NCBI GenBank assembly: GCA_946613885.1
Contig: CAMOGA010000003.1
Span: 11,764-75,763, forward strand
Direction: 5' to 3'
DNA: 64,000 bases
From: an uncultured Pseudomonadota bacterium
GTDB taxonomy: Bacteria; Pseudomonadota; Alphaproteobacteria; Rs-D84
The position numbers and the translations under genes are program-made. The notes beneath the pieces were generated by a model. That model saw only the letters and a program-made list of their open reading frames with translations, did not search any database and was not told the origin of the DNA. This document shows positions 17,632-62,510 of this stretch, one piece after another. How positions within the stretch are numbered: the first letter of the stretch is position 1; each line of letters starts with the position of its first letter.

Positions 17632-17800
17632 ACTTCTTCTCCTGTCCATGAAATCATAGTAAATTTTTTTATTCTGTGTCAACATACTTTTTGCATGGGT
17701 ATAATAAAAACACTTGATTTTTTGTAAAAAATCTTCATAATGTTGGATGTTCCTGCTGACGACATGGGGTTGTCGGCTGATATAAACCAAAGGAAATAAA

Positions 17801-25688: not shown

Positions 25689-26552
25689 TTATTTTAATCG
25701 TGCGCATGCGGTATCATAAAATAAACACAAATTTTCCGCCATAGATTTTTCAACTTCATGACCCGATGCACATTTATTTTTCATATTATTTGCACATACA
25801 CGTTTTACACAATCATTTTTCGCAGCATTATTTTTACAAGAATTTTGTGCCGCAGCCAATTTTTGTTCACGTGCCTTTTGATATGCCGCAACAATTGATT
25901 GTAATAATTTATTTGCATTGGCAAACATTGAATCACGCGTTGATATTAATGATTTACGAATATCTGATAAAAAAGTTTCACACCCCTGAGATTCAATAGA
26001 GCACTGTGAAAAATATTTATCGAAATCAGAATCCGATTCGCATTTTTTATAATCACTGTTGCAATGTTTGTCATTAACAATACATGCGTTTATTTCTTCG
26101 GAACAAGAACTTTGTGATTTTGTTTTTGTTAACTTTTTCGACAAATTAGCAAACTCAGCAGAAATTCCAGCCGCCTTGCATGATTGTTCAATTAACGAAT
26201 CGTAATTATCTGTGACATCATCTGTTGTACAATCTTTTAATTTTTCCAAACATAATCTGGTTGCCCAAACGTATCTTTCGCCAGGATCTTTTGGGGCCTT
26301 TTTTAATTCCTTGTCTGAAATGTTATATTTCGCAGACGCACCCGCCGATACAGATTTCATTGCCGTCGATTTTGCCGGTTCACCCGCAGACGATGAACCA
26401 CAATATTGACAACGTGCCGCCGGATTTGAACCAATATTTATCGCACACGCAGAATCCAAACAACGTGTTAAATTTTGCTTTGAACACGCACCATACACAA
26501 ATGTTGGCGCAAATAACATAAACACGGAAAAAATCAATATATGATGTTTCAT
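25689..26552 (-). CDS. secreted Cys-rich protein (related to the N-terminal Cys-rich region of 23085)
   Basis: Signal peptide. About 30 Cys in CxxxC/CxxxxxC spacing with coiled-coil stretches. Confidence 0.8.
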   Translation of the reverse strand: MKHHILIFSVFMLFAPTFVYGACSKQNLTRCLDSACAINIGSNPAARCQYCGSSSAGEPAKSTAMKSVSAGASAKYNISDKELKKAPKDPGERYVWATRLCLEKLKDCTTDDVTDNYDSLIEQSCKAAGISAEFANLSKKLTKTKSQSSCSEEINACIVNDKHCNSDYKKCESDSDFDKYFSQCSIESQGCETFLSDIRKSLISTRDSMFANANKLLQSIVAAYQKAREQKLAAAQNSCKNNAAKNDCVKRVCANNMKNKCASGHEVEKSMAENLCLFYDTACARLK

Positions 26553-26687
26553 TTCCCTCTTGCGAAAAATATTATATCAAAAATAGTATATTAAATCAAA
26601 GAAAAAAATACCTAGAACAATATAGTAAAAATTCTGGACATGGTATCTTTTTTTGTGTTAAACTTTAATCACAGAGAGAATATTCTA

Positions 26688-29600: not shown

Positions 29601-30323
29601 AAATACGGTAATTTTGCATTTGGAACACGTGCATTTTCAGGAATAATATCTGATGAAAATTTATTACAAAATGACCCTGTCGTTTCGTCCCAATTTGAAC
29701 CGGCACGTTTAGGGCTTGCAAATGGCATATCTGTTGATGGTGAATACAAAAATGACAGTTTTGCGTTTAATGTTGCAATTGGTAATTTACACGAAAATAA
29801 TACGGTTTTGGGTGCGTATAGTGATGGTTTGTTAACAATGCGTGGTGGTGATACAAAATATATTGATGCGGTTATGACTTATAATCCAATTGAAAAATTA
29901 AAATTATTTGCGCGCGCAACATTTGCTGATACAGACGTTAATACAACAGGTGGCATAATCAGTAATATTTCCAACATTAAATCAAATGCGTTTGCGCTGG
30001 GGACAAATATTGGTGGTTTTGAATTTACTGTGGCAATGCCGTTGGCGGTGGTGGATGGTAAATTAGGTTATGATTATGCAGATTTTGATGTTGTTGAAAA
30101 CGGTGGAAAATACGAAATTGCGATGAATAATCCACATATTGAATATGTTGATTTATCCGCGCAAAAACGTGAAATGCGTTTTTCAACATCATATAAAAAA
30201 TCAGTTGGTAAATTTACCGATGCAGGTATTGGTTTGATATATCGTATTAATCCAAATCACTCAGACACGTTTGGTAATGAATCAATGCTGATGTTTAAGA
30301 TTCATCATCGTTTGGGAATATAA
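26688..30323 (+). CDS. ankyrin-repeat / subtilase-like (apparently inactive) autotransporter
   Basis: Start at MKFIRIFGVL (signal peptide). ANK-like repeats (AARRGDIQTVQVLINNGTDVNYVD...). The passenger aligns with ORF 48590 around CFAAPGNTD--LEATAAMAGAIALV but lacks the GTS catalytic-Ser motif. C-terminal beta-barrel-like region. Confidence 0.75.
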   Translation: MKFIRIFGVLMLMMPCVSWAAGTSEFQNASQLLTAARRGDIQTVQVLINNGTDVNYVDSTGLSVVCTAVMNNDKRAIQILQMYGADASNCDRQIKQYKQKTRVAARGEEGGFFSGLSSTHVLALSAVGAAAVIGGVALLTNVLDDNDGGGASGGSNGDRPNNNNSDSSTSTTTTQLFAQNLPYGPGCTGDDCSEDYAIWEQKTPKDFDFMSTGNNFNYLMVAHAYDAFVRGYLGMTTVRNDSTREIFNLSDPKYPFDQTLGGGKPINVATITASGVNATGSAVDGLIYWFDANKRNSLVSLCTNSDGTFSQACIDAVNSSVKMSHKYFNLTGATVDNATETTSFDLSGSGSVFGMATDSDTKLAKIIAGWEGDERANPDFYGFIPNGQLTVYKTGGGNMWVDTTSSSVTAAYLIAGDELAVNDKFTLSDNTVLTVTSVSENSFHATDSSDNEYSGYLIGNNLFIDSNADGNINQMYVLGDENALTLTKELVVADYKNYSAIYRALSLKDSGKYVANVVANLSQPAGASELGYADVSDALVLYNNSTTDALKNSTFLGLIDNYYNLNTTDDSTVNKPSIDADNAFTYLKNNQEQILVNPAGHSLFGLGTGQSLSPQLATFENFAPVIYPGLQNLFMTVVAVKPADGTDGDTITGYTASGAGTLELSEWKDADNNNNISRMCGLSGTGNGGALNPWCFAAPGNTDLEATAAMAGAIALVNSAFDYMKPQEIFLLLALTADGPYLGKYAWSETHDSLLEYLQDMYTLPGSINTSDAQYMDDFKKVFGYGMINLERATRPGTNVYFYDSDTNSIVSSSGKDAFWGKVSSTTNSSRASTVLSLSGRGAITTSFYDVIQSADGTISLPRVWNATLNTDNYSRHALYMGDVLGEFNVDSTNRQSNQIGDFTFNMSTSQRAYNDNMNGLDNLSVSFKNEKYDIDANYQRFLTDGLSRFDGRANGVLSLVSNSVGGGAKYKYGNFAFGTRAFSGIISDENLLQNDPVVSSQFEPARLGLANGISVDGEYKNDSFAFNVAIGNLHENNTVLGAYSDGLLTMRGGDTKYIDAVMTYNPIEKLKLFARATFADTDVNTTGGIISNISNIKSNAFALGTNIGGFEFTVAMPLAVVDGKLGYDYADFDVVENGGKYEIAMNNPHIEYVDLSAQKREMRFSTSYKKSVGKFTDAGIGLIYRINPNHSDTFGNESMLMFKIHHRLGI

Positions 30324-42575: not shown

Positions 42576-45353
42576 TTACCATTTAATCATAAATTCATTA
42601 TCTGTCGGGACAGGGGTCGATATATCATTGCACGAACCAAATGCCCAGCCATTATTGTATCCATATTTACACGACAAATTATTTGCATCTGGTTGTGTTG
42701 CACATGTACCATTTTTACGATATCCCATTTCTGGCGCACCAGATTGACCCTGAAAATCGAAATAATTACCATACTGATCAATTAATATCCAATACCCATC
42801 TGTACATTCGTATTGAGATGTATTCACATTGAATGATATCGAATCGTTTGTTGTTATACAATATACATATATTTGACGGTTTGAGTTCTGGGGACAATAA
42901 TAATAACCACTATCATTACTATTACACGTTGTTGTCACCAAACGCCACGCATGATAATTGTTATCTGGAACGCAAATACCATTGTGCTTATAACCATTGG
43001 TGCAACAATTATTATACACATCACGCACACCACTGGCACAGTAATTGGTCAAAGAATTCAAAATAACATTTAATATTTCTTGTTTGGTTTCTGCATTTCC
43101 ACAATCATCTGTTTGTGTTTGTGAATACAATTGACACATACCATTTATCATTTTATATCCCACAGGGCAACCATATGTGCTGCAACTGGTATTATTTGTA
43201 TTTGTTGCGAACCATGATAACAATGTTGAATCAGTGCTAGGAATCAAAACATTTGGTTGTGTTTCTGTGGTTAATGCCACGTTTGTGGCGGTTTCTTTAT
43301 CACAATTACCCCAAATTTGTTCGGTAATCAAACATGCTATATCATTACCAGAACAAAAAGACGGGACATCGGAATATGTTATTCCAGGATACAGAGAATT
43401 ATAATAATTTTGCCTGTTTGTCACAATTGGCAAATTAGACATGTTGTTTAAATTATCTGCGCCGGCAACGCAATTTTTAACCTCGTTCCAGCATGCATCG
43501 CGTTTCAAGACAGCCATACGATTATCAGATGTTATATTTGCACACAACGCAAAATTACCAGATGTTCCATTACATTTTTGAATTATACAATCACGACCAA
43601 CCTGGCTGCATGTATCAAATATTGCATCATACGTCACATTTGTGGCAATACCTGTTATACCAATTCCCCAATTATTGTTTGCATCCGATGCCTGCATCAA
43701 AGCAACGCAAGAATTTTCAACATCGCGACACATTTCGTTTGCAGTTTTATCTGCAACCAGATTAAATACAGATAACGCGCGTGTATCAAACCCAGATAAA
43801 TCATCCAGTGAGCTGGTTTTGCATTCTGCAACCAATGTTGTACAACTGCGTTTGATTTCTTCCAGTTTTGCATTTTGTGCCAATTTTATCTGTGCCAACG
43901 CATCATCCAGAAATTCAGTCCAAATTGTATCTGCGATATCCCGACATTGTTCTATGGCAGGTTCTAAAAATTTTCGTTTAGATTTAAGAAAATTAACAAA
44001 TGGTTCGTTTTGGGTTATCTTTGACCACTTTTCATCGCCAGTTGGCTCTGTAATCAAATTTGATAAATTATATAAATTTTCAGATAAAAATGCCGAACCA
44101 TTTGATGGGTCGATATATTCACCGGTCGTATCCAGACATTTATATAAATTTGCCCCACACACAGAAGTATCAGACAATTGTTCTAATATTTTCTTTTTGC
44201 AAGTTAATGTATCATCGGAATTTCTTTGTTGATGTATATTTAATCGTGACATATCCAATAACGCACCACTTTCATGGATTTTGTTCATTGCATTGTTATA
44301 TTGTGTGTCATAAGATTTTGCGACAGTATTACAATCTTGCTGTATTGTTAATTTATAACCATCCTGGACAATAACAAATTCTTCATCAGAACAAACCTCG
44401 CGTGCCATTTCCAGACATACTGGATTTGCGGCATTATATAAATCTAGACCGCTTTTAGAAGTCGTCGACACCCCAGACAAAGAATCAATATTGTCCCATG
44501 CAGAATCCACATCCAAAGACAACGATATTGCAGACAAATCATTATTTATCTTTGAATCCCCAGAATTATTTAATGTTTTGGTGATTTTCTGTAATAACTT
44601 TTCAGATTCAGAAGTATCTTTCTTATCAAACGCCAATTCACCGGCCGTTGCAACATTGACTGCTGCTGCGGCATCTTTATCCAAACCAACCAACAATAAA
44701 CGTTGATTAAAATCTAACATTTTGTCTTCTGCCGCGCTTAATTGTTTTTTGATATTATCAAATTCATGAATCCGTGCAGAACATGCGCATCGCCGTAAAT
44801 TAGAATCTTTGTTTGCACAAAATTCATCCATACATTCATAATACACTGTCTTGCATTTTGAATAATCTGCAGATTTTATTGATTCTATTTTTTCTGTGTT
44901 TAATTGTGTGGCACGGGATTTATTCTTGCGAATTTGATTTGTTGCAGAACGTGTCGCAGACGGCGTATTTGCCTTACGCGAATTAACAACACGATTTGTC
45001 ACCGGTGTTCGGGATAACGAAGCATTATTTCGCATCACCACATTTTTTATTGTTGGCGACAGCGTTGTCGTTGTTGTTCGTGATTTAACATTTTGATTTG
45101 TTTGTGTTCGATTAACGACCCGTTGTTGTTTAGGCGCAACCGCAGTGCGTGAATTTTTCGTCTGGGTATTTTCACCACGTTTTACATCAGATGCCACAGA
45201 ACGTACGTTTGCAGAATTTGAATTTGTTGAAATCGTTGTCGCGGATGTTTGACGTTTATTTGCCGCACGTGCCGTTTCTGCATTATCAGCAAATGTCGTC
45301 TGCGATACAGACAAACCAAGGCATACAGTCAAAAACAGTATTATCCTTTTCAT
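42576..45353 (-). CDS. large secreted protein with an R/T/N/S-rich region plus an extensive Cys-rich domain (Cys-rich family 1)
   Basis: Signal peptide, ~150-aa basic T/N/S/R low-complexity region, conserved DYSKCKTVYYECMDEFCANKDSNLRRCACSARI block shared with ORF 4911, then ~700 aa with many Cys. Confidence 0.85.
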   Translation of the reverse strand: MKRIILFLTVCLGLSVSQTTFADNAETARAANKRQTSATTISTNSNSANVRSVASDVKRGENTQTKNSRTAVAPKQQRVVNRTQTNQNVKSRTTTTTLSPTIKNVVMRNNASLSRTPVTNRVVNSRKANTPSATRSATNQIRKNKSRATQLNTEKIESIKSADYSKCKTVYYECMDEFCANKDSNLRRCACSARIHEFDNIKKQLSAAEDKMLDFNQRLLLVGLDKDAAAAVNVATAGELAFDKKDTSESEKLLQKITKTLNNSGDSKINNDLSAISLSLDVDSAWDNIDSLSGVSTTSKSGLDLYNAANPVCLEMAREVCSDEEFVIVQDGYKLTIQQDCNTVAKSYDTQYNNAMNKIHESGALLDMSRLNIHQQRNSDDTLTCKKKILEQLSDTSVCGANLYKCLDTTGEYIDPSNGSAFLSENLYNLSNLITEPTGDEKWSKITQNEPFVNFLKSKRKFLEPAIEQCRDIADTIWTEFLDDALAQIKLAQNAKLEEIKRSCTTLVAECKTSSLDDLSGFDTRALSVFNLVADKTANEMCRDVENSCVALMQASDANNNWGIGITGIATNVTYDAIFDTCSQVGRDCIIQKCNGTSGNFALCANITSDNRMAVLKRDACWNEVKNCVAGADNLNNMSNLPIVTNRQNYYNSLYPGITYSDVPSFCSGNDIACLITEQIWGNCDKETATNVALTTETQPNVLIPSTDSTLLSWFATNTNNTSCSTYGCPVGYKMINGMCQLYSQTQTDDCGNAETKQEILNVILNSLTNYCASGVRDVYNNCCTNGYKHNGICVPDNNYHAWRLVTTTCNSNDSGYYYCPQNSNRQIYVYCITTNDSISFNVNTSQYECTDGYWILIDQYGNYFDFQGQSGAPEMGYRKNGTCATQPDANNLSCKYGYNNGWAFGSCNDISTPVPTDNEFMIKW

Positions 45354-50557: not shown

Positions 50558-50718
50558 CTATATAAAATATAGTATAAATATTATTTTTGTCAATATATTT
50601 TGTCAATTTTGTATTTTTTTTGTCAAAAATGACTTGACGTTGTTCTATATTGTGGTAGTTTGTGCGTATCGCGGAGCAGAGAGTGTCTATGGGTAATATA
50701 CATGTTAAGGACATTGAA

Positions 50719-51234
50719 ATGACATATATAAGAAACACAAAATACATAACAATTAATAAAGACGGTGTTTTTGTTGGTGGAAAACCTGCAACACATTATC
50801 GCGGGGTAAAAATAGCGTCTGATTCTTGGGAGCATGAAAGCTTTTGTGCTATTCAGGCACGTTATCCGAAAGTTATGGAAATACATGTGTTATCATCTAA
50901 AACCTGTGGTGTGTATGCAAAGGCAGGAAATCCGTCTGCGGAAACTGGGCCAAATGTATGGTGTCGTGTAAAATTTACCAATGGACATATTGGTTCGTGG
51001 GTGCTTCGTAATAAATTTGAATCAGGTAAAGACTTTTGTGCGGAAAACTGTCTTTATGTTTGCATGGCAGAGCTTTGCTTAGAGGAAGATTTTCGCAATG
51101 CAGTATTTGGTGCCAAATTGTTTGATGCTTTAAAAACCTCAGATTTATCTGTTTTTGTTAATAATCCTTTACAAATAAACGGATATGAAATCGTTGTAAA
51201 GAAAATTGCTGAAACACACCAAAACAAAAGATAA
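50719..51234 (+). CDS. array cassette A1 (family A, AT-rich type)
   Basis: Start at MTYIRNTKYITINKDGVFVGGKPATHYRG (AAGGA RBS). Family blocks GNPS..GPNVWCRVKF, CAENC. Tail LQINGYEIVVKKIAETHQNKR*. Confidence 0.8.
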   Translation: MTYIRNTKYITINKDGVFVGGKPATHYRGVKIASDSWEHESFCAIQARYPKVMEIHVLSSKTCGVYAKAGNPSAETGPNVWCRVKFTNGHIGSWVLRNKFESGKDFCAENCLYVCMAELCLEEDFRNAVFGAKLFDALKTSDLSVFVNNPLQINGYEIVVKKIAETHQNKR

Positions 51235-51246
51235 AAGGAAAATAAG

Positions 51247-51687
51247 ATGTCAGAAAAAAACGAAAATCAAACAAACAAAAAAACCAAAGATTTGTCATCA
51301 TCTTTTCCGCTTTACATGATGTGTGTTCTGGTCGCGGGAATGATTGCTGCCGAGATATATCTGACGTTTTGTGGAAAATCAGAATACAAAAATGTCGTTG
51401 TTAAAAACAACAAAGATAAAATATTAGTTCGTGATATTTGTACCGACAAACAAGAAAGAATTTTAACTGGTATTGGTATGCATGATGCTGGTAGCGACTA
51501 TAAATATTTGGTTCCTGGGGATACAATCATCGTCAAAGCAGACAAGGGTGTTTATAAAAACAATAAAGTGCTTTATTATCCAACCATACAATACAATCGT
51601 GATATCACTTTGGCCAGACAGCAACGCGCTAAATTTAATCAAATCAAAGATTCAGTGTTTGCCGAAACACAACAAATCAAAAGATAA
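51247..51687 (+). CDS. array cassette B1 (family B, N-terminal TM anchor)
   Basis: 146 aa. TM helix FPLYMMCVLVAGMIAAEIYLTF. About 90 percent identical to ORF 57502. Tail SVFAETQQIKR*. Confidence 0.85.
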   Translation: MSEKNENQTNKKTKDLSSSFPLYMMCVLVAGMIAAEIYLTFCGKSEYKNVVVKNNKDKILVRDICTDKQERILTGIGMHDAGSDYKYLVPGDTIIVKADKGVYKNNKVLYYPTIQYNRDITLARQQRAKFNQIKDSVFAETQQIKR

Positions 51688-51700
51688 AAGGTTCGTAATC

Positions 51701-52015
51701 ATGGCAAAATCATTGTATGTAAAGGATATTGTAAGTGCACCATATATATGTACTGTGCCGAGCGGCGGTGTAAATGCGATTAAATGTTATCCAGATGCAA
51801 AAACATACCATATTGGTGGTGTAAAGATAGGTTATTCTGCAAAAGAACAAACATTGATTGTTTTATTGCGTTATTCAAGAGAACAAAATGACAAAGCCAT
51901 AAGAACGTTTAAAGAACTGTTTTGTCCTGGACAGGTTGCTTGGGAAAAACAGAAGGGTACTGAAACAATTTTGGAAGAACATTTACGAGAAAGAACACAA
52001 CAAATCAAAAGATAA
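51701..52015 (+). CDS. array cassette C1 (family C)
   Basis: Start MAKSLYVKDIVSAPYICTVPSGGVNAIKCYPDA at ATG 51701 behind the conserved junction. The track ORF 51473 is an upstream extension through the junction. Tail ERTQQIKR*. Confidence 0.75.
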   Translation: MAKSLYVKDIVSAPYICTVPSGGVNAIKCYPDAKTYHIGGVKIGYSAKEQTLIVLLRYSREQNDKAIRTFKELFCPGQVAWEKQKGTETILEEHLRERTQQIKR

Positions 52016-52028
52016 AAGGTTCGTAACC

Positions 52029-52571
52029 ATGGCAAAATCTGATAAACGGGATTTTTATATTGATTTGGCAACGAATACTGTTGAAAGTTTTCGGGATTCT
52101 GCCGATGCCAATTATACGATGACATATAATTTTGGTGATTGGCAGGTGTCCATCAGTTTTTATCGGAATAATATCAAAGGCGGGGCGATATATAAACGCG
52201 ACAATCTGTGTGAGCCGGTTGCCAAATGGTCGCGTTATATGGAAAGCGATAAATCTGTGTTTGATATGTTAATTGCGGTGCAAAGCAAAAGTTTAGGTCG
52301 TCCATATGTAAACCCGTTTGACAAAAAAGCAAATGTGATAGAACGTGTTGTCGGGGCACCTTATATATGCACTATACCCGCTGGTGGTTTGCGTGCGATT
52401 AAATGTTATCCTGATGCCATAACTTGTTTTATTCGCGGTATAAAAATAGGATATTCTGAGCGCGAAAAAACTATGATTGTCCCACTAAAGACGCCTGTGT
52501 CTGAAATAGAAAAGTGTAAAACAATTTTGGAAGAACATTTACAAGAACGAACACAACAAATCAAAAGATAA
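52029..52571 (+). CDS. array cassette C2 (family C with ~100-aa N-terminal extension)
   Basis: Start MAKSDKRDFY at ATG 52029 behind the junction. C-terminal half GAPYICTIPAGGLRAIKCYPDA...TILEEHLQERTQQIKR* aligns with C1. Confidence 0.75.
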   Translation: MAKSDKRDFYIDLATNTVESFRDSADANYTMTYNFGDWQVSISFYRNNIKGGAIYKRDNLCEPVAKWSRYMESDKSVFDMLIAVQSKSLGRPYVNPFDKKANVIERVVGAPYICTIPAGGLRAIKCYPDAITCFIRGIKIGYSEREKTMIVPLKTPVSEIEKCKTILEEHLQERTQQIKR

Positions 52572-52584
52572 AAAGGTAAATAAA

Positions 52585-53070
52585 ATGACAGATATACCAA
52601 ATACAGAATATATTACGGTTAATAAAGATGGGTGTTTTGTTGGGGGAAAACCTGCGACAACATATCGAGGTGAGGAAATATATGGTATAGATTATGTAAA
52701 AAAAGCATTTGAATTGACGCAGAGACAAAATCCAGATGTGGAAGAATTTCATGTCGGTGCGTTTAAAACACCTGGTAAATATGCCAAGGCTGGCAATCCA
52801 TCCGGTGAATGTGGCCCGAACGCATGGTGTCGTATAAAGTTGCGTGGCATGGATGTACCCTCGGCTTTGTGGGTCTTTGACTGTTCATACCCTTCGGTGA
52901 CCGATTGTGCGTATTTCTGTGCGAACTATTGCATGTCCTTTGTTCGCGCCCGCGTGGGTTTCCGCACCGCAGTTTTGGAAGCGGCAGAATCGCAGGTGCG
53001 TCCACGAATAACACCAAATCAAATTATGATTGAAAAAATCCAACAAGATACAAAAGTAAAAGGTATATAA
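52585..53070 (+). CDS. array cassette A2 (family A, GC-rich patch, truncated tail)
   Basis: MTDIPNTEYITVNKDGCFVGGKPATTYRG..., NAWCRIKL, GC-rich segment 52838-53005, tail ...IMIEKIQQDTKVKGI*. Confidence 0.85.
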   Translation: MTDIPNTEYITVNKDGCFVGGKPATTYRGEEIYGIDYVKKAFELTQRQNPDVEEFHVGAFKTPGKYAKAGNPSGECGPNAWCRIKLRGMDVPSALWVFDCSYPSVTDCAYFCANYCMSFVRARVGFRTAVLEAAESQVRPRITPNQIMIEKIQQDTKVKGI

Positions 53071-53071
53071 A

Positions 53072-53764
53072 ATGACAGAATTGGAAAATGTAAGACAGGT
53101 GACTCGGGACCTAAATGAATGGTTAGGCGAAATGCCTTATTTTCCGAACACAGAATATATCACTGTAAATGCGGACGAAATTTTCGTTGGTGGAAAACCT
53201 GCAACGCATTATCTGGGATACGAAATAATTTCACCAGAGTATATTAAAAAGACTTTTAAAGAAATACAAAATAAATTTTCAAATCTGCAAGAAATCCATA
53301 TATTATCATCGTCAACCGATGGTTATGTGGCACCAATACGAAAAGAACGTATAGCGACTGGAGGGTATGCAGCCAGTGAATTACGGCCAAGCCTGCAACA
53401 CGGCAACGCGGCATGGTGTCGTATAAAATTAAATGATGGAACAGAGGGAATTTGGACGTATGAATGCTACTATGGTACTTTTTCAGATTGTGCTGAAAGA
53501 TGTGCACAGGATACTATGAGGGATTTGACTAATGAAAAGATTCCTGCTACTCGATTTATTTTAGCAATTGCAACGAAATCCAAAACGAAATGCACAGCAG
53601 CAAAAAAACAAAATACAAAACCAGTACCACAGCCGGAAACAGAACTTAAACAAACATTAAGAAATACAGATTTATCCAAACTTGCTGGGAAAACTGTTGA
53701 ATTAAATGGATACAAAATCATGATTGAAAAAACCAAACAAGATATAATAACCAAAGGAAAATAA
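53072..53764 (+). CDS. array cassette A3 (family A with N-terminal extension, AT-rich type)
   Basis: ..PNTEYITVNADEIFVGGKPATHY.., AAWCRIKL, DCAERCAQD, tail LNGYKIMIEKTKQDIITKGK*. 1-nt spacer from A2. Confidence 0.85.
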   Translation: MTELENVRQVTRDLNEWLGEMPYFPNTEYITVNADEIFVGGKPATHYLGYEIISPEYIKKTFKEIQNKFSNLQEIHILSSSTDGYVAPIRKERIATGGYAASELRPSLQHGNAAWCRIKLNDGTEGIWTYECYYGTFSDCAERCAQDTMRDLTNEKIPATRFILAIATKSKTKCTAAKKQNTKPVPQPETELKQTLRNTDLSKLAGKTVELNGYKIMIEKTKQDIITKGK

Positions 53765-53765
53765 C

Positions 53766-54053
53766 ATGGCAGAAAAAGCGGAATCAATAATTTTATCAAC
53801 CGGCAAAGATGAAGACGGTGTTTTTGTACGGGCATATAATACGCATTGGAATACGTTCATTGTAAGTCAAAAGAATTATTATGCTAATTATTATCCTGAG
53901 CGCAGTAGAAATATAGATTTATCAGAATTACAACGTGGTGACCGGGTAATATTTGTTCGTCTTCAGTATAAATATTTTATTGAAAATCATTTAACAATGG
54001 AACAAATAAGAAATTCCTTTATCCAAGAGCGAACAAAACAAGACGGCAGATAA
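53766..54053 (+). CDS. array cassette S1 (singleton, 95 aa)
   Basis: 1-nt spacer from A3. Tail ..FIQERTKQDGR* resembles the common tail. Confidence 0.65.
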   Translation: MAEKAESIILSTGKDEDGVFVRAYNTHWNTFIVSQKNYYANYYPERSRNIDLSELQRGDRVIFVRLQYKYFIENHLTMEQIRNSFIQERTKQDGR

Positions 54054-54139
54054 AAATGCTTGCCCTGTAATTTTTTTGACTTAATACGCATGGCGCTATA
54101 TTTATGCGTAAATATAATGGATTTTTTTTAATAAAATAC

Positions 54140-54168
54140 TTGATTTTTTTATAATATTTGGCTATTAT
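54140..54168 (+). promoter_or_regulatory. candidate rpsB promoter
   Basis: TTGATT (54140-54145), 17-nt spacer, TATTAT (54163-54168). A ~115-nt structured leader lies before ATG 54284. Confidence 0.4.
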
Positions 54169-54283
54169 GGTGGCACGCATTTAATGCGAATAACACAGGC
54201 AACAGACATAATTTCTGTCCAAACACGTTTGGTTTTTTACGTCTGCTGACCGAGGATAACAACAGAAAACAAAGGATTTAGAT

Positions 54284-55138
54284 ATGGCATTGCCAACTTT
54301 TACAATGAAACAATTAATGGAAGCGGGCGTTCATTTTGGACATCATACACGTCGTTGGAACCCGTTAATGACACCTTATGTTTATGGGGTCAAAGATAAA
54401 ATTCATATTATCAATTTGAACAAAACTGCACCGTTGTTGCACCGTTCTTTGGTTGCTTTGGAAGCAATCGCAGCGGCTGGTGGAAAAATCTTGTTTGTTG
54501 CAACAAAACATCAGGCAAAAGATATTGTCAAAGATGCGGCAGAACGTTGTGGTCAATATTATGTAAATAACCGTTGGTTGGGTGGTATGTTGACTAACTG
54601 GACAACTGTTTCACAAAGTATTCGTCGTTTGAAAAAAATGGAAAACGATATTGCTAATGCAGACAAATTGGGATTAACCAAAAAAGAAGTCGGTGTTATG
54701 ACCAAAGAAGTTGCTAAATTGCGTGATATTTTCGGTGGTATTTTGGAAATGCACGGTATTCCTCAGGCGATGATTGTTATTGATGTGCCACGTGAAATGA
54801 ACGCTGTTCATGAAGCAAAAGTTTTGGACATTCCAACAATTGCTATCTGTGATACTAATGCAAACCCAGAATTGGTTGATTACCCAGTTCCAGGTAACGA
54901 TGATGCATCACGTGCAACACAATTGTATTGCGATTTATTCGTAGATGCAATTTTGTCTGGTATTGAAAAAAGATTGGGCGGCGCAGCTGGCAAAAAGGCA
55001 GACGTTGATAACGCAGAGGCCGCTGCAGAAGAATACGAACATGATTTAAAGGTCAAAGAAGCAAAACAAAAATCAAAAACTTCCGAAGCCCGCGAAGTTC
55101 GTCGCAGCAAATTGGCAGACAAAGCCGACAAACAATAA
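54284..55138 (+). CDS. rpsB: 30S ribosomal protein S2
   Basis: MKQLMEAGVHFGHHTRRWNP... typical S2. K/E/A-rich C-terminal extension. Confidence 0.97.
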   Translation: MALPTFTMKQLMEAGVHFGHHTRRWNPLMTPYVYGVKDKIHIINLNKTAPLLHRSLVALEAIAAAGGKILFVATKHQAKDIVKDAAERCGQYYVNNRWLGGMLTNWTTVSQSIRRLKKMENDIANADKLGLTKKEVGVMTKEVAKLRDIFGGILEMHGIPQAMIVIDVPREMNAVHEAKVLDIPTIAICDTNANPELVDYPVPGNDDASRATQLYCDLFVDAILSGIEKRLGGAAGKKADVDNAEAAAEEYEHDLKVKEAKQKSKTSEAREVRRSKLADKADKQ

Positions 55139-55160
55139 CTTATAAAGAAAGGAAATAAAA

Positions 55161-56030
55161 ATGGCAGAAGTGACAGCTAAACTGGTTCAAGAATTGCGTG
55201 AAAAAACATCCGCAGGTATGATGGATTGTAAAAAAGCATTGGTTGAAAACAATGGCGATATCGAGGCCGCTGCTGATTGGTTGCGCCAAAAAGGTATCGT
55301 AAAGGCTGCATCTAAGGCGGGCCGTGTTGCGGCATCTGGTTTGGTGACGGTTGTTAAATGCGATAATATGGGTTGTGTTGTTGAATTAAACGCAGAAACA
55401 GATTTCGTTGCTAAAAATGATAAATTCCAATCTTTGGTTGCAAACGTTGCAAACAAAGCACTGGAATTGTCTGGTGATTTCGATGCAACATTAAAGGCAG
55501 TCCAAGATGATATCGCTGCAACAATTTCCACAATTGGTGAAAATATGTCTTTGCGCCGTATTGCCAAGGTTAATGGTGACCATATTTATTCTTATGTTCA
55601 CAATGCTTTGGTTCCAGGTATGGGACAAATTGGTGTTGTTGTTGCAATCAATGGCGATGATGCACGTATTGACGAAATTGGTGGCAAAATCGCAATGCAT
55701 ATTGCTGCGAACAAACCTGAATTTATGACTATTGCTGACGTTGATCCAAAGGCGGTTGAACGCGAAAAGAAAGTATTCATTGAATCTGGGGCAACAGCGG
55801 GTAAACCTGAAAACATTGTTGAAAAAATGGTCGAAGGTCGTATCCAAAAATGGTATGCGGAATCAGTATTAGAAGAACAACCATTTGTTATGGACCCTTC
55901 TAAGAAAGTTAAAGATGTTGTCGCAGAACACGGCGGTAAATTGGCCGGGTTCGCATACTATGTCTTGGGCGAAGGTATCCAAAAACGCGAAGACAATTTG
56001 GCTGATGAAGTTGCAAAAATGTTGAAATAA
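55161..56030 (+). CDS. tsf: elongation factor Ts
   Basis: VTAKLVQELREKTSAGMMDCKKALVENNGDIEAAADWLRQKG... typical EF-Ts. Confidence 0.97.
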   Translation: MAEVTAKLVQELREKTSAGMMDCKKALVENNGDIEAAADWLRQKGIVKAASKAGRVAASGLVTVVKCDNMGCVVELNAETDFVAKNDKFQSLVANVANKALELSGDFDATLKAVQDDIAATISTIGENMSLRRIAKVNGDHIYSYVHNALVPGMGQIGVVVAINGDDARIDEIGGKIAMHIAANKPEFMTIADVDPKAVEREKKVFIESGATAGKPENIVEKMVEGRIQKWYAESVLEEQPFVMDPSKKVKDVVAEHGGKLAGFAYYVLGEGIQKREDNLADEVAKMLK

Positions 56031-56059
56031 TTTCGCATAAATCAAAAAAAACGGAGAGA

Positions 56060-56089
56060 GTCGCACAGGTTTTATTTGTGCGACTTTTT
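56060..56089 (+). terminator. rho-independent terminator after tsf
   Basis: GTCGCACA-GGTTTTATT-TGTGCGAC followed by TTTTT. Confidence 0.75.
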
Positions 56090-56109
56090 CAGCAAAAAAG
56101 GGATGAAAT

Positions 56110-56628
56110 ATGGCGAACATTCCAAATACAGAATATATCACAATTAATAAAGATGATGTTTTTGTTGGTGGAAAACCGGCGATAAAATATCGTGGGGTAG
56201 AAATAGCGTGGATTGAATATTTATGGGAACATTTTGAAGCGATACAAAAAATACATCCAGATATTATGGAAATGCACGCCCTGTCATCAGAAACACGTGG
56301 TGAATATGGCGTGATTGGTAACCCATCGGCAAAACACGGTTACAACGCATGGTGTCGTGCAAAATTTAATAATGGACGTGTTTTCCCATGGGTGTTTGTT
56401 AGAGAGTATGATTTTATGGATGAATGCGCAAGTCGTTGTGCATATCAAACTCTGGATGACTTTCGTCTTTCTGCACAAATGCGTTCTGCCGCTTTGGGGA
56501 CACCAGATCATTTGATAAAGGCATTAAAAGACGTGGATTTATCTAACTGTGTTGGCAAACCTGTGCAATTAAACGGATATGAAATCGTTGTAAGAAAACT
56601 TGCTGAAACTAAACAAAATAAAAGATAA
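56110..56628 (+). CDS. array cassette A4 (family A, AT-rich type)
   Basis: MANIPNTEYITINKDDVFVGGKPAIKYRG.., NAWCRAKF, ECASRCAYQ, tail VQLNGYEIVVRKLAETKQNKR*. Confidence 0.85.
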   Translation: MANIPNTEYITINKDDVFVGGKPAIKYRGVEIAWIEYLWEHFEAIQKIHPDIMEMHALSSETRGEYGVIGNPSAKHGYNAWCRAKFNNGRVFPWVFVREYDFMDECASRCAYQTLDDFRLSAQMRSAALGTPDHLIKALKDVDLSNCVGKPVQLNGYEIVVRKLAETKQNKR

Positions 56629-56640
56629 AAGGAGTAAATA
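56572..56640 (+). repeat. 69-nt direct repeat, copy 1 (3' tail of A4 plus junction); copy 2 at 56988-57056
   Basis: AACGGATATGAAAT[C/T]GTTGTAAGAAAACTTGCTGAAAC[T/C]AAACAAA[A/T][T/C]AAAAGATAAAA... is repeated on both sides of cassette 56641..56979. Confidence 0.85.
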
Positions 56641-56979
56641 ATGTCTAAAATTTTAAAAGAAAAATGGAAAAATGTTCGTGCTGCAAAAAAAGCAAAAAAG
56701 ATCGCAGAATCTGAAATAGTCGAAACAAGCACTGAAAGGCCAGATAATGTTTGCATATTTAATGAGATTCAACGGATTCCAGATAGGTTGAAAGATAAAG
56801 AATTTCCTGCACCAATGATAATTGTTCGTCATTGTGAACATTTTTCAGAAGGTCAAATCTGTGATAACGCAGATTGTCCTATGCATGATAAAAATGTGCA
56901 ATATATATCTGCATTAAAAAAACACAAACAAGAACGTCGTGAATTTTTCCACATGTTATTTCATGGTCGTAAAAGATAA
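56641..56979 (+). CDS. array cassette S2 (singleton, basic N-terminus, Cys/His cluster)
   Basis: 112 aa. HCEHFSEGQICDNADCPMHD looks like a small metal-binding motif. Tail ..HGRKR*. Bracketed by the 69-nt direct repeats. Confidence 0.65.
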   Translation: MSKILKEKWKNVRAAKKAKKIAESEIVETSTERPDNVCIFNEIQRIPDRLKDKEFPAPMIIVRHCEHFSEGQICDNADCPMHDKNVQYISALKKHKQERREFFHMLFHGRKR

Positions 56980-56987
56980 AATAAAAA

Positions 56988-57043
56988 ACGGATATGAAAT
57001 TGTTGTAAGAAAACTTGCTGAAACCAAACAAATCAAAAGATAA
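56988..57043 (+). pseudogene. orphan 3' tail fragment of a family-A cassette
   Basis: Encodes only NGYEIVVRKLAETKQIKR* with no upstream body. Near-identical to the end of A4. Confidence 0.8.
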
Positions 57044-57056
57044 AAAGGTAAATAAA

Positions 57057-57488
57057 ATGGCGAATCCATACAGTGTGTTTGACGAAAATGGACACTATAA
57101 ACCCGGAACATATAATAACGGGTATGGTTCCAAAACAGGAATGCCGATTAAAAAAAATCCAGAATGGCATGAAAGTGATTTTCATGGCACGTCCGCTGTT
57201 TATCCAACGTATGTTTATAATGTGTATCCTTATCGTACAATGGGTGGTTTATTTGGTAGTAAACCTGTCACATACTATAATGTTCGTGTGCGGTTTAATT
57301 CTGAATCCAAAGGTATGGAGCCACCACGCGCATTGGATTGTGCAGAAATTTATGTGGATAACAGCCCTTATCAATCATATTGGGAAGCGGTATATGAATT
57401 TCATGATGGTTTGTTTAAATCTGCACAACAAAAGGCAAATGATTTTTATAGCGAAATTGTAAATCAAATACGTTCGAATAAAAGATAA
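57057..57488 (+). CDS. array cassette S3 (singleton, 143 aa)
   Basis: Start MANPYSVFDENGHYKPG at ATG 57057 behind the junction. The track ORF 57015 is an upstream extension. Tail ..IVNQIRSNKR*. Confidence 0.7.
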   Translation: MANPYSVFDENGHYKPGTYNNGYGSKTGMPIKKNPEWHESDFHGTSAVYPTYVYNVYPYRTMGGLFGSKPVTYYNVRVRFNSESKGMEPPRALDCAEIYVDNSPYQSYWEAVYEFHDGLFKSAQQKANDFYSEIVNQIRSNKR

Positions 57489-57501
57489 AAGGTTCGCAAT
57501 C

Positions 57502-57942
57502 ATGACAGAAAAAAACGAAAATCAAACAAATAAAAAAACCAAAGATGTATCTTCATCTTTTCCACTTTATATGATGTGTGTTCTGGTCGCGGGAATGATT
57601 GGTGCCGAGATATATCTGACATTTGGTAGAAAATCAGAATACAAAAATGTCGTTGTTAAAAACAACAAAGATAAAATATTAGTTCGTGATATTTGTACCG
57701 ACAAACAAGAAAGAATTTTAACTGGTATTGGTATGCATGATGCTAGCAGCGACTATAAATATTTGGTTCCTGGGGATACAATCATCGTCAAATTCGACAA
57801 AGATGAGTATAAAAGCAATAAAGTGCTTTATTATCCATTTATACAATACAATCGTGACAGTACCTGGGCCAGACAGCAACGCGCTAAATTTAACCAAATC
57901 AAAGATTCTGTGTTTGCCGAAACGCAACAAAATAAAAGATAA
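57502..57942 (+). CDS. array cassette B2 (family B, N-terminal TM anchor)
   Basis: 146 aa. 14 differences from B1 by hand alignment. Tail SVFAETQQNKR*. Confidence 0.85.
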   Translation: MTEKNENQTNKKTKDVSSSFPLYMMCVLVAGMIGAEIYLTFGRKSEYKNVVVKNNKDKILVRDICTDKQERILTGIGMHDASSDYKYLVPGDTIIVKFDKDEYKSNKVLYYPFIQYNRDSTWARQQRAKFNQIKDSVFAETQQNKR

Positions 57943-57956
57943 AAAGGTTCGCAATC

Positions 57957-58514
57957 ATGACAGATACTAAAAATACAGAATATATCACTGTAAATGCCAA
58001 TGGGATTTTTGTTGGGGGAAAAACCACAACAACATATCGTGGTGAAGATATATGCGGTATGCAAGATGTCAAAAATATGTTTGCATGGATGCAGGAACAA
58101 AATCCAGAAATAGAGGAATTTCATATTGGTGCATTTGAAACGCGTGGCGAACATGCAAAACCGGGCAATCCGAATGGTGTGTTTGGTCCAAATGCATGGT
58201 GTCGTGTGAAATATAAAAATGGTAACTTGGGTGCTTGGGTCTTCAACTACACGAGCAATTCGGCCGCCGGTTGTGCGAACTACTGTGCGGGCAACTGCGC
58301 GTACTACGTCCGCGGCGACTCCGCCTTTCGCGCGGCGGTGTTTGGTGCGACAATTAAAAAACAAAATGTCAAACCTGTGACACAGCCAGAAGCAGAACTT
58401 AAACGAAAATTACAAGGAACAGATTTATCAAAATTGGTTGGCAAACCTGTGCAATTAAACGGTTATAAAATCATTGTTGAAAAAATTGCCGAAACGCAAC
58501 AAAATAAAAGATAA
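57957..58514 (+). CDS. array cassette A5 (family A, GC-rich patch)
   Basis: MTDTKNTEYITVNANGIFVGGKTTTTYRG.., NAWCRVKY, GC-rich patch 58236-58349, tail VQLNGYKIIVEKIAETQQNKR*. Confidence 0.88.
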   Translation: MTDTKNTEYITVNANGIFVGGKTTTTYRGEDICGMQDVKNMFAWMQEQNPEIEEFHIGAFETRGEHAKPGNPNGVFGPNAWCRVKYKNGNLGAWVFNYTSNSAAGCANYCAGNCAYYVRGDSAFRAAVFGATIKKQNVKPVTQPEAELKRKLQGTDLSKLVGKPVQLNGYKIIVEKIAETQQNKR

Positions 58515-58527
58515 AAGGTTCGCAATC

Positions 58528-59088
58528 ATGACAGATATACCAAATACAGAATATATTACAGTTAACAAAGACGGAATTTTTGTTGGGGGAAAACCTGCGA
58601 CAACATATCGTGGTGAAGAAATACGTTATTCAAACGTTGTGCGGAAATCTTTTGCCGACATCCAAAGATTAAATAAAAATGTTGCGGAATTGCATGTGTC
58701 GTCATCGGAAACATTTGGCGAATATGCAGAACCGGGTAATCCATCAGGAATCCATGGTCGAAACGCATGGTGTCGGGTGAAATTTAATGATGGATATGTT
58801 GCATCGTGGGTCTTCCGCTACACGTACAGTTCGGTCGCCCGTTGTGCGCTCAACTGTGCGTACGACTGCGCGCACGACATCCGTGAGCTCGCGCCGTTTC
58901 GTTTGGCGGTGTTGAGTGCGAATGATAAACAAAATTCACAGCCAAAACAAATTCAAAATCCAATCGTGTTATGTGATAAAAATGGAATTTATCATGTCAA
59001 AATTGGACATGAAGAATTTTCCGGCACACGCACAGAGGTTTTGAAACAAATGACATTGCGTATAAAAAGTTTTTTAAAGGTTCGGTAA
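58528..59088 (+). CDS. array cassette A6 (family A, GC-rich patch, divergent C-terminus)
   Basis: Start MTDIPNTEYITVNKDGIFVGGKPATTYRG at ATG 58528 behind the junction. GC-rich patch 58807-58920. Unrelated tail ..RIKSFLKVR*. Confidence 0.88.
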   Translation: MTDIPNTEYITVNKDGIFVGGKPATTYRGEEIRYSNVVRKSFADIQRLNKNVAELHVSSSETFGEYAEPGNPSGIHGRNAWCRVKFNDGYVASWVFRYTYSSVARCALNCAYDCAHDIRELAPFRLAVLSANDKQNSQPKQIQNPIVLCDKNGIYHVKIGHEEFSGTRTEVLKQMTLRIKSFLKVR

Positions 59089-59093: not shown

Positions 59094-59120
59094 AAAACCG
59101 TCCGGATGGGCGGTTTTTTG
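59094..59120 (+). terminator. rho-independent terminator closing the array
   Basis: AAAACCGTCCGGATGGGCGGTTTTTTG. Confidence 0.8.
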
Positions 59121-60405: not shown

Positions 60406-60449
60406 AAATTTGCAATTGGTGTATTTTTAATATAAAATTCACCACATAT

Positions 60450-61304: not shown

Positions 61305-62510
61305 ATGTTTAAACGCATGATTTTTGGCGGATTGTTTACAGCAATGCTCGTATTGCCTGCTTTCTCTTTACCCCCATATTCTTTAGATCCTGAACTAGGA
61401 ACAGGTTTTAATTCTGATGCAAATGGCGAAATTTCTGGGGCCTGTGTTGTTGATTATTTGGGCGTGACCAGTGGCAACACAACATTAGAGGCAATTTGGG
61501 TTCCACGTATTTCTGGTGCAATAACATTAGATAGCAAGATATATACCAGTGAATCTGATACAACTGGTATTGTGCCAAATTCTGGTGCAACACCGACACC
61601 TGTATACAGTGAATATGGTACAGGTATTTATTCCGATTCGGCTGCACAAAATCCAGTGACACAATTGGCAACCGTACCGGCAAATGCGGGATATGAATTT
61701 TTAGGATTTTATACAGAAAAGTTTTCTGGGGGAAAACAGGTCATAGATGCCGGTGGTAATATTATCACAGATGCGGCATCTACGTTTGTTTCGGAAAGGG
61801 GACAACCTGCAACGTTCTATGCCAGATGGAAGGCAACAAAACATATGTGCCCAGACGGTTATATGGGCGAAGACACCGAATCGGATGCAGATTGTTATAA
61901 AGAAGTATCTGTTGCGTGTTCAACCATCAATCCATACGAACACGGTACTGCTACATACAGAAACACATCAGCGACATGCAGACAATATTATGGAAACGAA
62001 TCGGTTAATAATTGCGAATCGGTTCCAGACAGTACATGTGCTGTGACTGGTTTGACATGTAATGATGGTTATACATTGATATCTGAAAATGGCAGATTGA
62101 GTTGTACACAGGCGTTTGTTGAATGCGAAGCCGGAACATATTTGCCTGCAAATGCTAACGAATGCGTGGTTTGCACAGAAGATAATTACTGTCTGGGCGG
62201 TTTGTATACACCATATCAATCAAATGCTCAGGGTATTACACCATGCGAATCTGGTCTGAAATCACCAGCAGGTTCACAAAAGGCGGCAGATTGTGGTTAT
62301 ATCTTGCATGTCGGTGATGATAAGTTGTACCTGCACGCCGACAAGAATACCAGCCCGTCATTGGTGGTCGAAGTGGATGGTCAAAAATGGTACGGAGATG
62401 CAACACCTGTTGCAAATGGCAAGAAGACGATATCTGATGACACTAACAAGACGATGCACATGGAATACAAGGGTACAGAATACACAGTGCACGGCAGGTA
62501 TGTCGAATAG
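61305..62510 (+). CDS. secreted family-D protein with Listeria/Bacteroides-type repeat and furin/ephrin-receptor-like Cys repeats
   Basis: Signal peptide. ANAGYEFLGFYTE repeat signature. C-terminal CEAGTYLPANANECVVCTEDNYCLGG pattern. Confidence 0.8.
   Translation: MFKRMIFGGLFTAMLVLPAFSLPPYSLDPELGTGFNSDANGEISGACVVDYLGVTSGNTTLEAIWVPRISGAITLDSKIYTSESDTTGIVPNSGATPTPVYSEYGTGIYSDSAAQNPVTQLATVPANAGYEFLGFYTEKFSGGKQVIDAGGNIITDAASTFVSERGQPATFYARWKATKHMCPDGYMGEDTESDADCYKEVSVACSTINPYEHGTATYRNTSATCRQYYGNESVNNCESVPDSTCAVTGLTCNDGYTLISENGRLSCTQAFVECEAGTYLPANANECVVCTEDNYCLGGLYTPYQSNAQGITPCESGLKSPAGSQKAADCGYILHVGDDKLYLHADKNTSPSLVVEVDGQKWYGDATPVANGKKTISDDTNKTMHMEYKGTEYTVHGRYVE

Follow-up and report, generated by a model that had tools for sequence, protein, structure and literature searches.

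What kind of locus places thirteen small, uncharacterised genes around the translation operon rpsB-tsf, and what might their products do? The array in question lies in a stretch of 64,000 nucleotides (hereafter the window; contig CAMOGA010000003.1, positions 11,764 to 75,763) from a Candidatus Enterousia-like gut alphaproteobacterium of the order Rs-D84. Members of this lineage have genomes below 1 Mb, and an obligate symbiotic or parasitic lifestyle has been proposed for them (PMC12306168). On balance, we read the locus as a flexible cassette islet beside rpsB-tsf that is driven by recombination and has no integrase, with intracellular products that are probably conflict-related binding proteins.

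Rs-D84/Enterousia bacteria occur widely in the guts of animals and humans and are thought to depend on other cells. A string of shuffled and exchanged ORFans filling 6.5 kb (~0.7% of the genome) at a single site likely marks genes that are key to their strain-level ecology. Among the papers retrieved for "Enterousia" or "Rs-D84", no title or abstract concerns this array or its protein family A.

A thirteen-gene array flanking rpsB-tsf

Listing and translation of open reading frames (ORFs) confirmed thirteen small genes, all on the plus strand, and alignment reproduced the classes that an earlier note on this DNA had drawn by hand, named conserved blocks included: six copies of family A, two of family B, two of family C and three singletons (S1 to S3). 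Upstream of rpsB stand, in order, A1 (50719-51234; 171 aa; E = 1.5e-68 with the family A hidden Markov model, HMM), B1 (51247-51687; 146 aa), C1 (51701-52015; 104 aa), C2 (52029-52571; 180 aa), A2 (52585-53070; 161 aa), A3 (53072-53764; 230 aa, with an N-terminal extension and an internal insert) and S1 (53766-54053; 95 aa). Downstream of tsf follow A4 (56110-56628; 172 aa), S2 (56641-56979; a basic, Cys/His-rich ORFan of 112 aa), a non-coding family A remnant, S3 (57057-57488; 143 aa), B2 (57502-57942; 146 aa), A5 (57957-58514; 185 aa) and A6 (58528-59088), in which a family A core is fused to a C-terminal module of ~50 aa. The start of A1 is ambiguous (ATG at 50689 or 50719), with homology favouring 50719. 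All thirteen copies are complete ORFs, each preceded by a Shine-Dalgarno sequence and beginning with ATG, and most of the products are mildly basic.

The six family A copies share 38-52% identity with A1 and 36-52% across within-genome pairs, with 31 invariant alignment columns; the 5′ and 3′ ends of the genes are conserved and the middle is more variable. B1 and B2 are 90% identical as proteins and 94% identical as DNA over 300 nt, and both the identity and the membrane anchor earlier attributed to family B hold, the latter as one N-terminal transmembrane helix. Families A and C and the three singletons have no signal peptide, again as previously described. C1 and C2 have in common an APYICT..CYPDA block and a 55-nt tail that is 96% identical; C1 is recombinant, its last ~50 nt being a C2-type tail. 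The spacers of 1-14 nt described before are found at most junctions, the exception being the 77 nt between S2 and S3, which hold the family A remnant (56986-57047, plus strand). This remnant consists of a family A 3′ end with its junction and is a direct repeat of 56571-56632; over 60 nt (56986-57045) it duplicates the A4 3′ end at 56571-56630 with 93% identity. No other non-coding remnant was found between array genes.

The genes had been described as wrapped around, and interrupted by, rpsB-tsf. They do flank the operon on both sides, but the notion of an interruption did not stand. Identified through Pfam Ribosomal_S2 and EF_TS on identical proteins, rpsB (54284-55138) and tsf (55161-56030), both on the plus strand, constitute a self-contained unit with its own conserved leader and terminator hairpin, and the arrays therefore flank the operon rather than interrupt it. 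The promoter and leader block of rpsB (54119-54283, plus strand) is the left edge of the invariant core: homology to three short-allele contigs (L031, L116 and L120) resumes exactly at 54119. A promoter-like site lies within it (54128-54155). Behind tsf, a terminator-like hairpin with a U tract (56054-56090, plus strand; -23.5 kcal/mol, z = -5.3) has 12 predicted pairs across 10 species, and compensatory changes are seen at 4 of these pairs; this hairpin had escaped the terminator scan. The ATG region of A4, where the downstream sub-array begins, starts 20 nt after the hairpin, and no promoter-like site was seen between the two. An intrinsic terminator before tyrS (59094-59117, plus strand; 10-bp stem and T run; -14.8 kcal/mol, z = -3.4) closes the array, and no convincing terminators were found inside either sub-array. 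For the upstream sub-array, the only promoter candidate is a weak promoter-like site (9/12 matches) at 50714-50743 in the intergenic region between the S8 protease gene and A1.

A conserved junction element between cassettes

Successive genes are joined by an A-rich element with the canonical form ..GAA-ACN-CAA-CAA-AAY-AAA-AGA-TAA-AAGG-(8-9 nt)-ATG, from which the peptide tail ..ETQQNKR results. The 3′ end of a cassette carries CAAAAYAAAAGA-TAA-AAGG, followed by N8-9 and the next ATG, and the stop codon falls within the Shine-Dalgarno region of the next gene. The junction at 58503-58535 (plus strand; ..AAAAGA-TAA-AAGG-TTCGCAATC-ATG) is an example. Allowing at most one mismatch, the 13-nt core AAAAGATAAAAGG occurs nine times in the array and once elsewhere in the 64 kb, against 0.25 occurrences expected, in line with the conserved junctions that had been reported. 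Further exact copies lie on the plus strand at 51226, 51679, 52007, 56620 and 57480, and copies with one mismatch at 52563, 57035 and 57934. The motif recurs at the array junctions of many species and is missing from the non-array junctions of those same loci.

The element is also retained where it is not read in the usual frame. Two genes in other loci carry an exact motif out of frame (L001 9709-9999, ending in ..EQKIKGS*; L010 2986-3633, ending in ..NQKIKSK*), and in the window a 1-nt deletion within the motif lets the A2 ORF run through to ..KVKGI*. Because the motif survives in other reading frames, the conserved object is a nucleic acid element rather than a C-terminal peptide signal, and a secretion or degradation tag in the ..QNKR tail was downgraded on the same ground. 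Furthermore, the spacer 3′ of AAGG travels with the downstream gene, as seen for AGTAAATA, which precedes S2 both in the window and in a second strain of the species, L115; the cassette boundary thus lies inside the junction motif.

The mechanical ORF list extended four entries upstream across the junction through TTG or GTG starts (51473-52015, 51936-52571, 57015-57488 and 58474-59088; for example ..NKSKDKRFVIMAKS). These extensions are artefacts, because the A-rich junction is open in more than one frame, a property that also accounts for the naturally fused double-A proteins (300-370 aa) of other genomes.

Conserved position and variable content

Across species, the array occupies a constant place in a backbone consisting of a Pom-like outer-membrane protein, a 206-aa protein, a DUF3078 outer-membrane protein, sometimes an S8 protease, the array, rpsB-tsf, the array again, and tyrS. 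In the window, the flanks comprise the Pom-like and DUF3078 outer-membrane proteins, the S8 protease (on the opposite strand, 5′ of the array), tyrS and tRNA-Arg. Thirteen rpsB-tsf-linked loci contain 79 array ORFs belonging to ~20 families. Family A is present in all 13 loci with 33 copies in total, ranging from 1 to >6 per locus, whereas every other family occurs in at most six; these other families include a DUF3419 methyltransferase-like protein, an 86-aa Cys-rich protein and fusions to acyl carrier protein (ACP)-like (PP-binding) domains. The module at the C terminus of A6 corresponds to a free-standing 58-aa gene located 3′ of tsf in other species (L002 14959-15135; L003 4460-4636; L007 11119-11295; L009 13348-13524).

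All comparison genomes are metagenome assemblies. Contigs of the same species were retrieved by exact-protein look-ups with the window's rpsB and tsf products; a metagenome scan with EF-Ts for further strains returned almost only distant EF-Ts genes. Strain L115, an 89,953-bp contig from another sample, has flanks 97-98.7% identical to those of the window and a backbone synonymous divergence (dS) of 0.045-0.073. Its array nevertheless differs from that of the window. Upstream of rpsB, it carries A1, a family B gene, a long form of C1 (286 aa), a family A gene (188 aa), DUF3419 and S1; downstream of tsf, it carries A4, S3, B2, a double-A gene (345 aa), S2 and a truncated family A gene. S1 is 100% identical in L115, while an unrelated 85-aa gene takes its place in three other samples of the species; this third allele (A1, the 85-aa gene, rpsB) was recovered in all three samples independently. 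The predicted variation in cassette number, order and content was thus seen both between related genomes and between strains of one species, and the identical, static arrays that would have spoken against the earlier note were not what we found.

The homology breakpoints coincide with particular sequence elements. They lie at 51253 (A1/B1 junction), 51965 (start of the 55-nt C-tail repeat, where the colinearity of C1 with L115 ends), 53753 (A3/S1 junction), 56646 (A4/S2 junction), 56986 (start of the A-tail remnant) and 58022 (within the conserved 5′ module of A5, between the window and L115), so that all six fall on a junction or a shared module (family A 5′ or 3′ end, or C tail).

Domain shuffling accompanies cassette shuffling, since ACP-like (PP-binding) domains that retain the DSL motif are fused variously to family A, to a B-like domain or to an A-tail module (L002 8964-9623; L007 4070-4507; L018 7313-7789; proteins P0143 and P0158). 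A trio consisting of a DUF3419 methyltransferase-like gene (264-297 aa), an 86-aa Cys-rich gene and a 133-aa family A gene stands directly 5′ of rpsB in three loci (L002 11323-12918; L003 245-1863; L006 9079-10766), and its first two genes alone occur in another (L030 1968-3049). This trio may be a functional module.

Exchange of cassettes between species

Cassettes have been gained, lost, moved and exchanged between species. By Nei-Gojobori estimates, several cassettes show 4-30 times lower synonymous divergence than the flanking rpsB, tsf and tyrS. Between the window and L030, dS is 0.068 for A1 and 0.033 for S2, against 0.97 for rpsB and 0.73 for tsf. The comparison with L007 gives 0.17 for S3 against 1.30 (rpsB) and 0.84 (tsf), and that with L002 gives 0.17 for A4 against 0.75 (rpsB), 0.81 (tsf) and 1.19 (tyrS). 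Because the cassette values lie far below those of the flanking core genes, we conclude that cassettes are exchanged between species. The L007 homologue of S3 is moreover located upstream of rpsB.

A1 delimits the exchanged unit. Its DNA is 96-97% identical to L030 and L031, although rpsB of L030 is only 80% identical, and the segment of high identity runs from 2-12 nt before the ATG to 8-19 nt past the stop codon. Since this segment ends close to the limits of the gene, the unit of exchange is a single-gene cassette.

Selection on the cassettes differs from that on the core. Ratios of nonsynonymous to synonymous divergence (dN/dS) are mostly 0.13-0.74 for cassettes, compared with 0.00-0.10 for core genes and 0.04-0.10 for rpsB and tsf in particular; the sole cassette value above 1, 1.38 for S2 against L030, is based on very few substitutions. 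The cassettes are thus real coding genes under relaxed or partly diversifying selection. The family A paralogs of the window are 62-95% identical to proteins of other genomes, against 36-52% to one another, which indicates that the array is a repertoire of old lineages and not a set of recent duplicates. With a conserved position between core genes, strain-specific content and signs of horizontal exchange, the locus has the features of a flexible island.

A mobile ORFan cassette

S2 is a mobile cassette. Its family comprises only two clusters among 5.8 billion proteins, and its dS is 0.00-0.03. Together with a trailing A4-type tail remnant, S2 forms a unit found in three different slots: in the window it follows A4, in L030 it follows an A1-type gene on the upstream side of rpsB, and in L115 it follows the double-A gene. 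In L115, only the first ~30 nt of the tail remnant are recognisable, and the site that S2 occupies in the window is empty. The cassette flanked by direct repeats that the earlier note had pointed out is real, and it sits in a different slot in another strain.

The sole other member of the family, P0259 (68% identical), lies between a duplicated 5′ fragment of ftsJ/rlmE and the intact gene (L121 5770-7087), with ftsJ/rlmE direct repeats of 36 and 119 nt that are 89-96% identical. An S2-family ORFan is thus flanked by duplicated target sequence at two unrelated sites, and judged from the sequences these repeats are consistent with excision and Campbell-type reinsertion through short homology. 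We also considered S2 as a homing-endonuclease-like gene and set the idea aside, given no domain hit and a family of only two clusters.

Homology searches and distribution

Ten of the array proteins were compared with the Pfam, PHROGs, PADLOC and NCBIfam libraries; A4, B2 and A5 were scanned in only some of these libraries, with their families represented in all. Nothing rose above noise. Searches of PDB sequences with the family A profile, B1, C2, S1, S2 and S3 gave no match either. The earlier statement that the proteins contain no recognisable domain agrees with these searches, and no member matched a housekeeping or phage structural protein. No toxin domain was detected in the ten scanned array proteins or in the flanking genes, and no toxin-tip remnants lie between the genes.

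With tblastn, family A drew no match among 50,697 phage and 72,556 plasmid records, nor was it present in IMG/VR. These results, together with the lack of a significant PHROGs hit, speak against a phage- or plasmid-borne accessory module. A family A profile search yielded 292 clusters at 90% identity, none of them named, and an exhaustive HMM search 683 representatives at 50% identity. In a scan of GTDB species genomes, all 29 family A loci belonged to uncultured Alphaproteobacteria, "proteobacterium RUG" or Candidatus Enterousia metagenome-assembled genomes, from rumen and gut. In that scan the family is confined to one lineage and does not stand beside toxins in other taxa. Family B is rarer, with only 19 clusters among 5.8 billion proteins.

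The family A fold and its secreted relatives

AlphaFold2 modelled family A with confidence (A4 with 113 homologues; predicted local distance difference test score, pLDDT, 90.3; predicted template-modelling score, pTM, 0.74). The modelled topology comprises an N-terminal beta-hairpin, an alpha-beta-beta-beta-alpha unit, two short helices and a C-terminal hairpin. Foldseek comparison of the model with PDB and BFVD gave nothing significant (best E-value 0.06, TM <0.33), and family A is thus a confidently modelled fold without a structural relative in PDB or among viral models. Foldseek resemblances to YfiA and to dsRBD were too weak to be used as evidence, and identities suggested by eye for the A core, the 58-aa module and the A tail (HicA/HicB or AbrB-like) were dropped for want of a profile or fold hit. 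The family B model (20 homologues; pLDDT 41.6) was unusable.

The family A core (profile positions ~59-136) recurs two to five times in giant, metagenome-derived surface proteins, at least two of which have clear signal peptides; one protein of 4,750 aa also carries six Listeria-Bacteroides (Flg_new) repeats and a C-terminal Endonuclease_1 domain. A secreted relative is encoded in the window itself (2138-2956, minus strand; 272 aa); it combines a signal peptide and a Flg_new repeat (1.1e-8) with a six-Cys homologue of the family A core (..CWC..CxxxCxxxC; E = 1.3e-3). The six-Cys domain corresponds to no described family in Pfam or NCBIfam. In an alignment of 295 domains, the secreted type has six Cys (C59, C80, C82 and CxxxCxxxC at 106/110/114) and no N-terminal module, whereas A-type domains never have C59 or C80, and the great majority of them carry the N-terminal module together with H56, C82, C106, C110 and C114.

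No signal peptide, fusion of some family A relatives to ACP-like domains, loss of two Cys and gain of a His together suggest that family A is an intracellular derivative of a secreted, disulfide-stapled repeat, possibly one that binds metal through the His and the Cys still present. The two forms, secreted with six Cys and intracellular with four Cys plus His, make a natural pair in which to follow the adaptation of a disulfide-stapled domain to the cytoplasm. We take the CxC and CxxxC(xxxC) spacing of the secreted relatives to resemble the cysteine-stabilised alpha/beta (CS-alpha-beta) staple of defensins and scorpion toxins. The likeness is one of pattern only: the domain, at ~75 residues, is larger than a defensin, family A lacks the first Cys of the CxC, and neither sequence nor Foldseek comparison matches family A with defensins.

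Comparison with described systems

In organisation, the locus is closest to integron arrays and to the rAID-1 arrays of gut Bacteroidales; in genomic logic, it is closest to the hypervariable region HVR2 of SAR11. Like integron arrays, it consists of co-oriented, mostly promoterless single-gene cassettes with conserved junctions and an upstream promoter, varies between strains and is exchanged horizontally. Integrons, however, have an intI integrase and an attI site, neither of which was found in the 64-kb window. Their attC hairpins measure 57-141 nt, whereas the element here is a ~20-35-nt A-rich stop/Shine-Dalgarno element at a 1-14-nt spacer. Spacers of this length leave no room for attC sites, and an inverted-repeat scan showed no attC-like hairpin recurring at the junctions. 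Breakpoints fall in coding-sequence modules too, a sign of homologous and not of site-specific recombination.

SAR11 HVR2 comprises ~50 genes, mostly cell-envelope enzymes with their own regulation (PMC3448164). Both loci are paralog-rich, strain-variable hypervariable regions at a conserved position in a streamlined alphaproteobacterium, and both are bounded by extremely conserved genes of the translation apparatus (rRNA at HVR2; rpsB-tsf and tyrS here). The present locus differs from HVR2 in being made up of closely coupled ORFan mini-genes, strung over 6.5 kb and joined by a defined junction.

Polymorphic toxin/immunity loci (contact-dependent inhibition or CDI, Rhs and MafB) likewise contain tandem, small, divergent paralogs that lack signal peptides and vary between strains. 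They differ in having an upstream toxin gene with a trafficking domain, toxin C-terminal remnants and immunity proteins known to Pfam, none of which is seen here.

Mechanism and function

In the mechanism that we favour, transcription from the strong rpsB promoter would run on through the tsf terminator into the downstream sub-array, and the S8-A1 intergenic region would be the likely source of the promoter for the upstream one. Within each sub-array, termination-reinitiation coupling at the junction would drive translation. The junction and the highly conserved flanking core genes would supply homology for RecA-type recombination, including excision of cassettes and their Campbell-type reinsertion, without a dedicated recombinase. 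The resulting repertoire of old, divergent paralogs would serve strain-specific binding or neutralising roles against competitors, phage or a partner cell.

A survey of the window for recombinases and secretion components, which covered the flanking genes by Pfam and 28 other large ORFs by eye over their first 110 residues, revealed no integrase, invertase or other recombinase and no reverse transcriptase.

Several points weigh against the flexible-islet reading. Function is its weakest step: strain-specific intracellular binding or neutralising proteins are favoured, but a conflict role has against it that no PADLOC or Pfam hits (immunity families included), no adjacent toxin gene and no phage, plasmid or viral homologues were found. 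Read-through of the tsf terminator and translational coupling are proposed from sequence alone, and a metal site in family A is suggested by conservation patterns only. A recombinase could be encoded outside the 64 kb. Conservation of the junction motif could reflect mere common descent of cassette 3′ ends, with the out-of-frame cases as recent frameshifts. Finally, repeats in metagenome assemblies can yield misjoins, yet the key configurations recur in independent samples.

A bolder version of the cassette reading, to which we give limited credence, treats the CAAAAYAAAAGA-TAA-AAGG junction as an undescribed integrase-free cassette platform that couples translation and serves as the crossover point at which cassettes are excised, reinserted and exchanged between species, with rpsB-tsf and tyrS as anchors and transcription source. 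Family A would then be a new fold in which an extracellular disulfide-stapled repeat has become an intracellular, metal-stabilised specificity module, and an S2-type ORFan a minimal form of mobile gene. Should the junction act in the proposed way, cassette dynamics like those of integrons could come about with no integrase, and the junction motif together with family A would offer a concrete marker for such arrays in metagenomes.

Alternative explanations

The best placed of the rivals, which we nevertheless consider unlikely, is that the products are leaderless secreted effectors of an obligate symbiont or parasite, exported through a shared C-terminal signal (..AETQQNKR) and acting on a host or partner cell. 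Such proteins would suit a lineage with a reduced genome for which dependence on a partner has been proposed, and the repeat domain homologous to the family A core is extracellular. The window also encodes a 1,227-aa protein (26640-30323, plus strand) in which N-terminal ankyrin repeats are the only recognised domain; in symbionts, such ankyrin-repeat proteins often serve in interaction with the host. Moreover, the otherwise unrelated A, B, C and S3 proteins have a basic C-terminal tail in common, the Thr/Ala codons of which vary synonymously. The tail also speaks against this explanation, since the motif read in other frames gives the C termini ..KVKGI, ..EQKIKGS and ..NQKIKSK, and the peptide is therefore not required. 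The survey of the 64-kb window recognised no type I, III, IV or VI secretion component, A-type domains have lost two of the six Cys of the secreted form and gained an invariant His, and some family A proteins are fused to ACP-like domains, which are cytoplasmic.

Quite unlikely, in our view, is an orphan immunity-gene island akin to the acquired interbacterial defence (AID) and rAID-1 arrays of Bacteroidales, in which antidotes against competitors' toxins would be stockpiled in the gut. The rAID-1 arrays have two defining features, a XerD-like recombinase placed 5′ and homology of their genes to type VI secretion immunity genes (bioRxiv 10.1101/471110). They share with the present locus a dense gut habitat, co-directional small genes without signal peptides, repetitive intergenic sequences, active horizontal gene acquisition and strain variability, and old, divergent paralog lineages would fit a repertoire of specificities. 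However, the position 5′ of the array is held not by a XerD-like recombinase (>44% identity to BF9343_RS08045) but by the S8 protease on the opposite strand, and phylum, protein families and chromosomal site differ as well. The array proteins matched neither Pfam, with its immunity-protein families, nor the PADLOC defence families; no cognate toxin gene was found, and the restriction of family A to a single lineage in the GTDB scan, away from toxins elsewhere, argues in the same direction. While this explanation overlaps the functional guess made for the flexible islet, membership of AID/rAID itself is rejected. The effector- or immunity-type function proposed in the earlier note finds no direct support, with no toxin gene, no Pfam immunity or PADLOC match and no secretion system in the window, and with the shared tail conserved as DNA.

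Very unlikely is a role as translation-associated accessory proteins, binding the ribosome or elongation factors and co-regulated with rpsB-tsf. Linkage to rpsB-tsf in 13 loci points that way, as do the mildly basic products and further family A genes placed, on inspection of neighbours by eye, after rpsF-rpsR-rplI (L017), before rpsD (L005) and near frr (L008 and L013). The beta-alpha-beta-beta-beta-alpha topology is also weakly like that of ribosome-bound YfiA (rank 35, E = 1.3, TM 0.32/0.48), but this Foldseek hit is not significant. A copy number of 1 to >6 and strain-variable content are unlike a core translation factor, and the cassettes are horizontally exchanged with dN/dS mostly several-fold above that of rpsB and tsf. 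In a genome below 1 Mb, many neighbours are translation genes by chance, and core genes are good recombination anchors too.

Programmed antigenic or phase variation of the Anaplasma msp2 or Borrelia vls type, the earlier note's other proposal, or an assembly artefact of a repeat-rich region, can be all but dismissed: although family A genes have conserved ends around a more variable middle and metagenome assemblies often break at array edges (several short contigs of the species stop at 53753 or 56099), variation systems (msp2/p44, vls, pilS) have an expression site, truncated silent donors and a surface product, whereas here all copies are full length with Shine-Dalgarno sequence and ATG, no expression site with silent donors is present, none of the products starts with a signal peptide, purifying selection acts on the cassettes, the ORFs surveyed include no invertase, reverse transcriptase or integrase, and paralogs only 36-52% identical are not being homogenised, while the same array configurations recur in independent samples and in contigs of 89-94 kb.

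Other features of the window and of L115

A second indel hot spot lies just past the array. Between tyrS and tRNA-Arg, L115 carries an extra 1.2 kb (16671-17891) that the window does not have (compare 60423-60448); it contains a minus-strand gene for a 283-aa protein with weak zf-dskA_traR hits.

The window further encodes large secreted proteins rich in Ser, Thr, Asn or Cys at 42576-45353 (minus strand), 23085-25673 (minus strand), 61305-62510 (plus strand) and 25689-26552 (minus strand). The two that were scanned, at 42576-45353 and 61305-62510, have no Pfam hit. A relative of the protein encoded at 25689-26552 adjoins a family A gene in L004.

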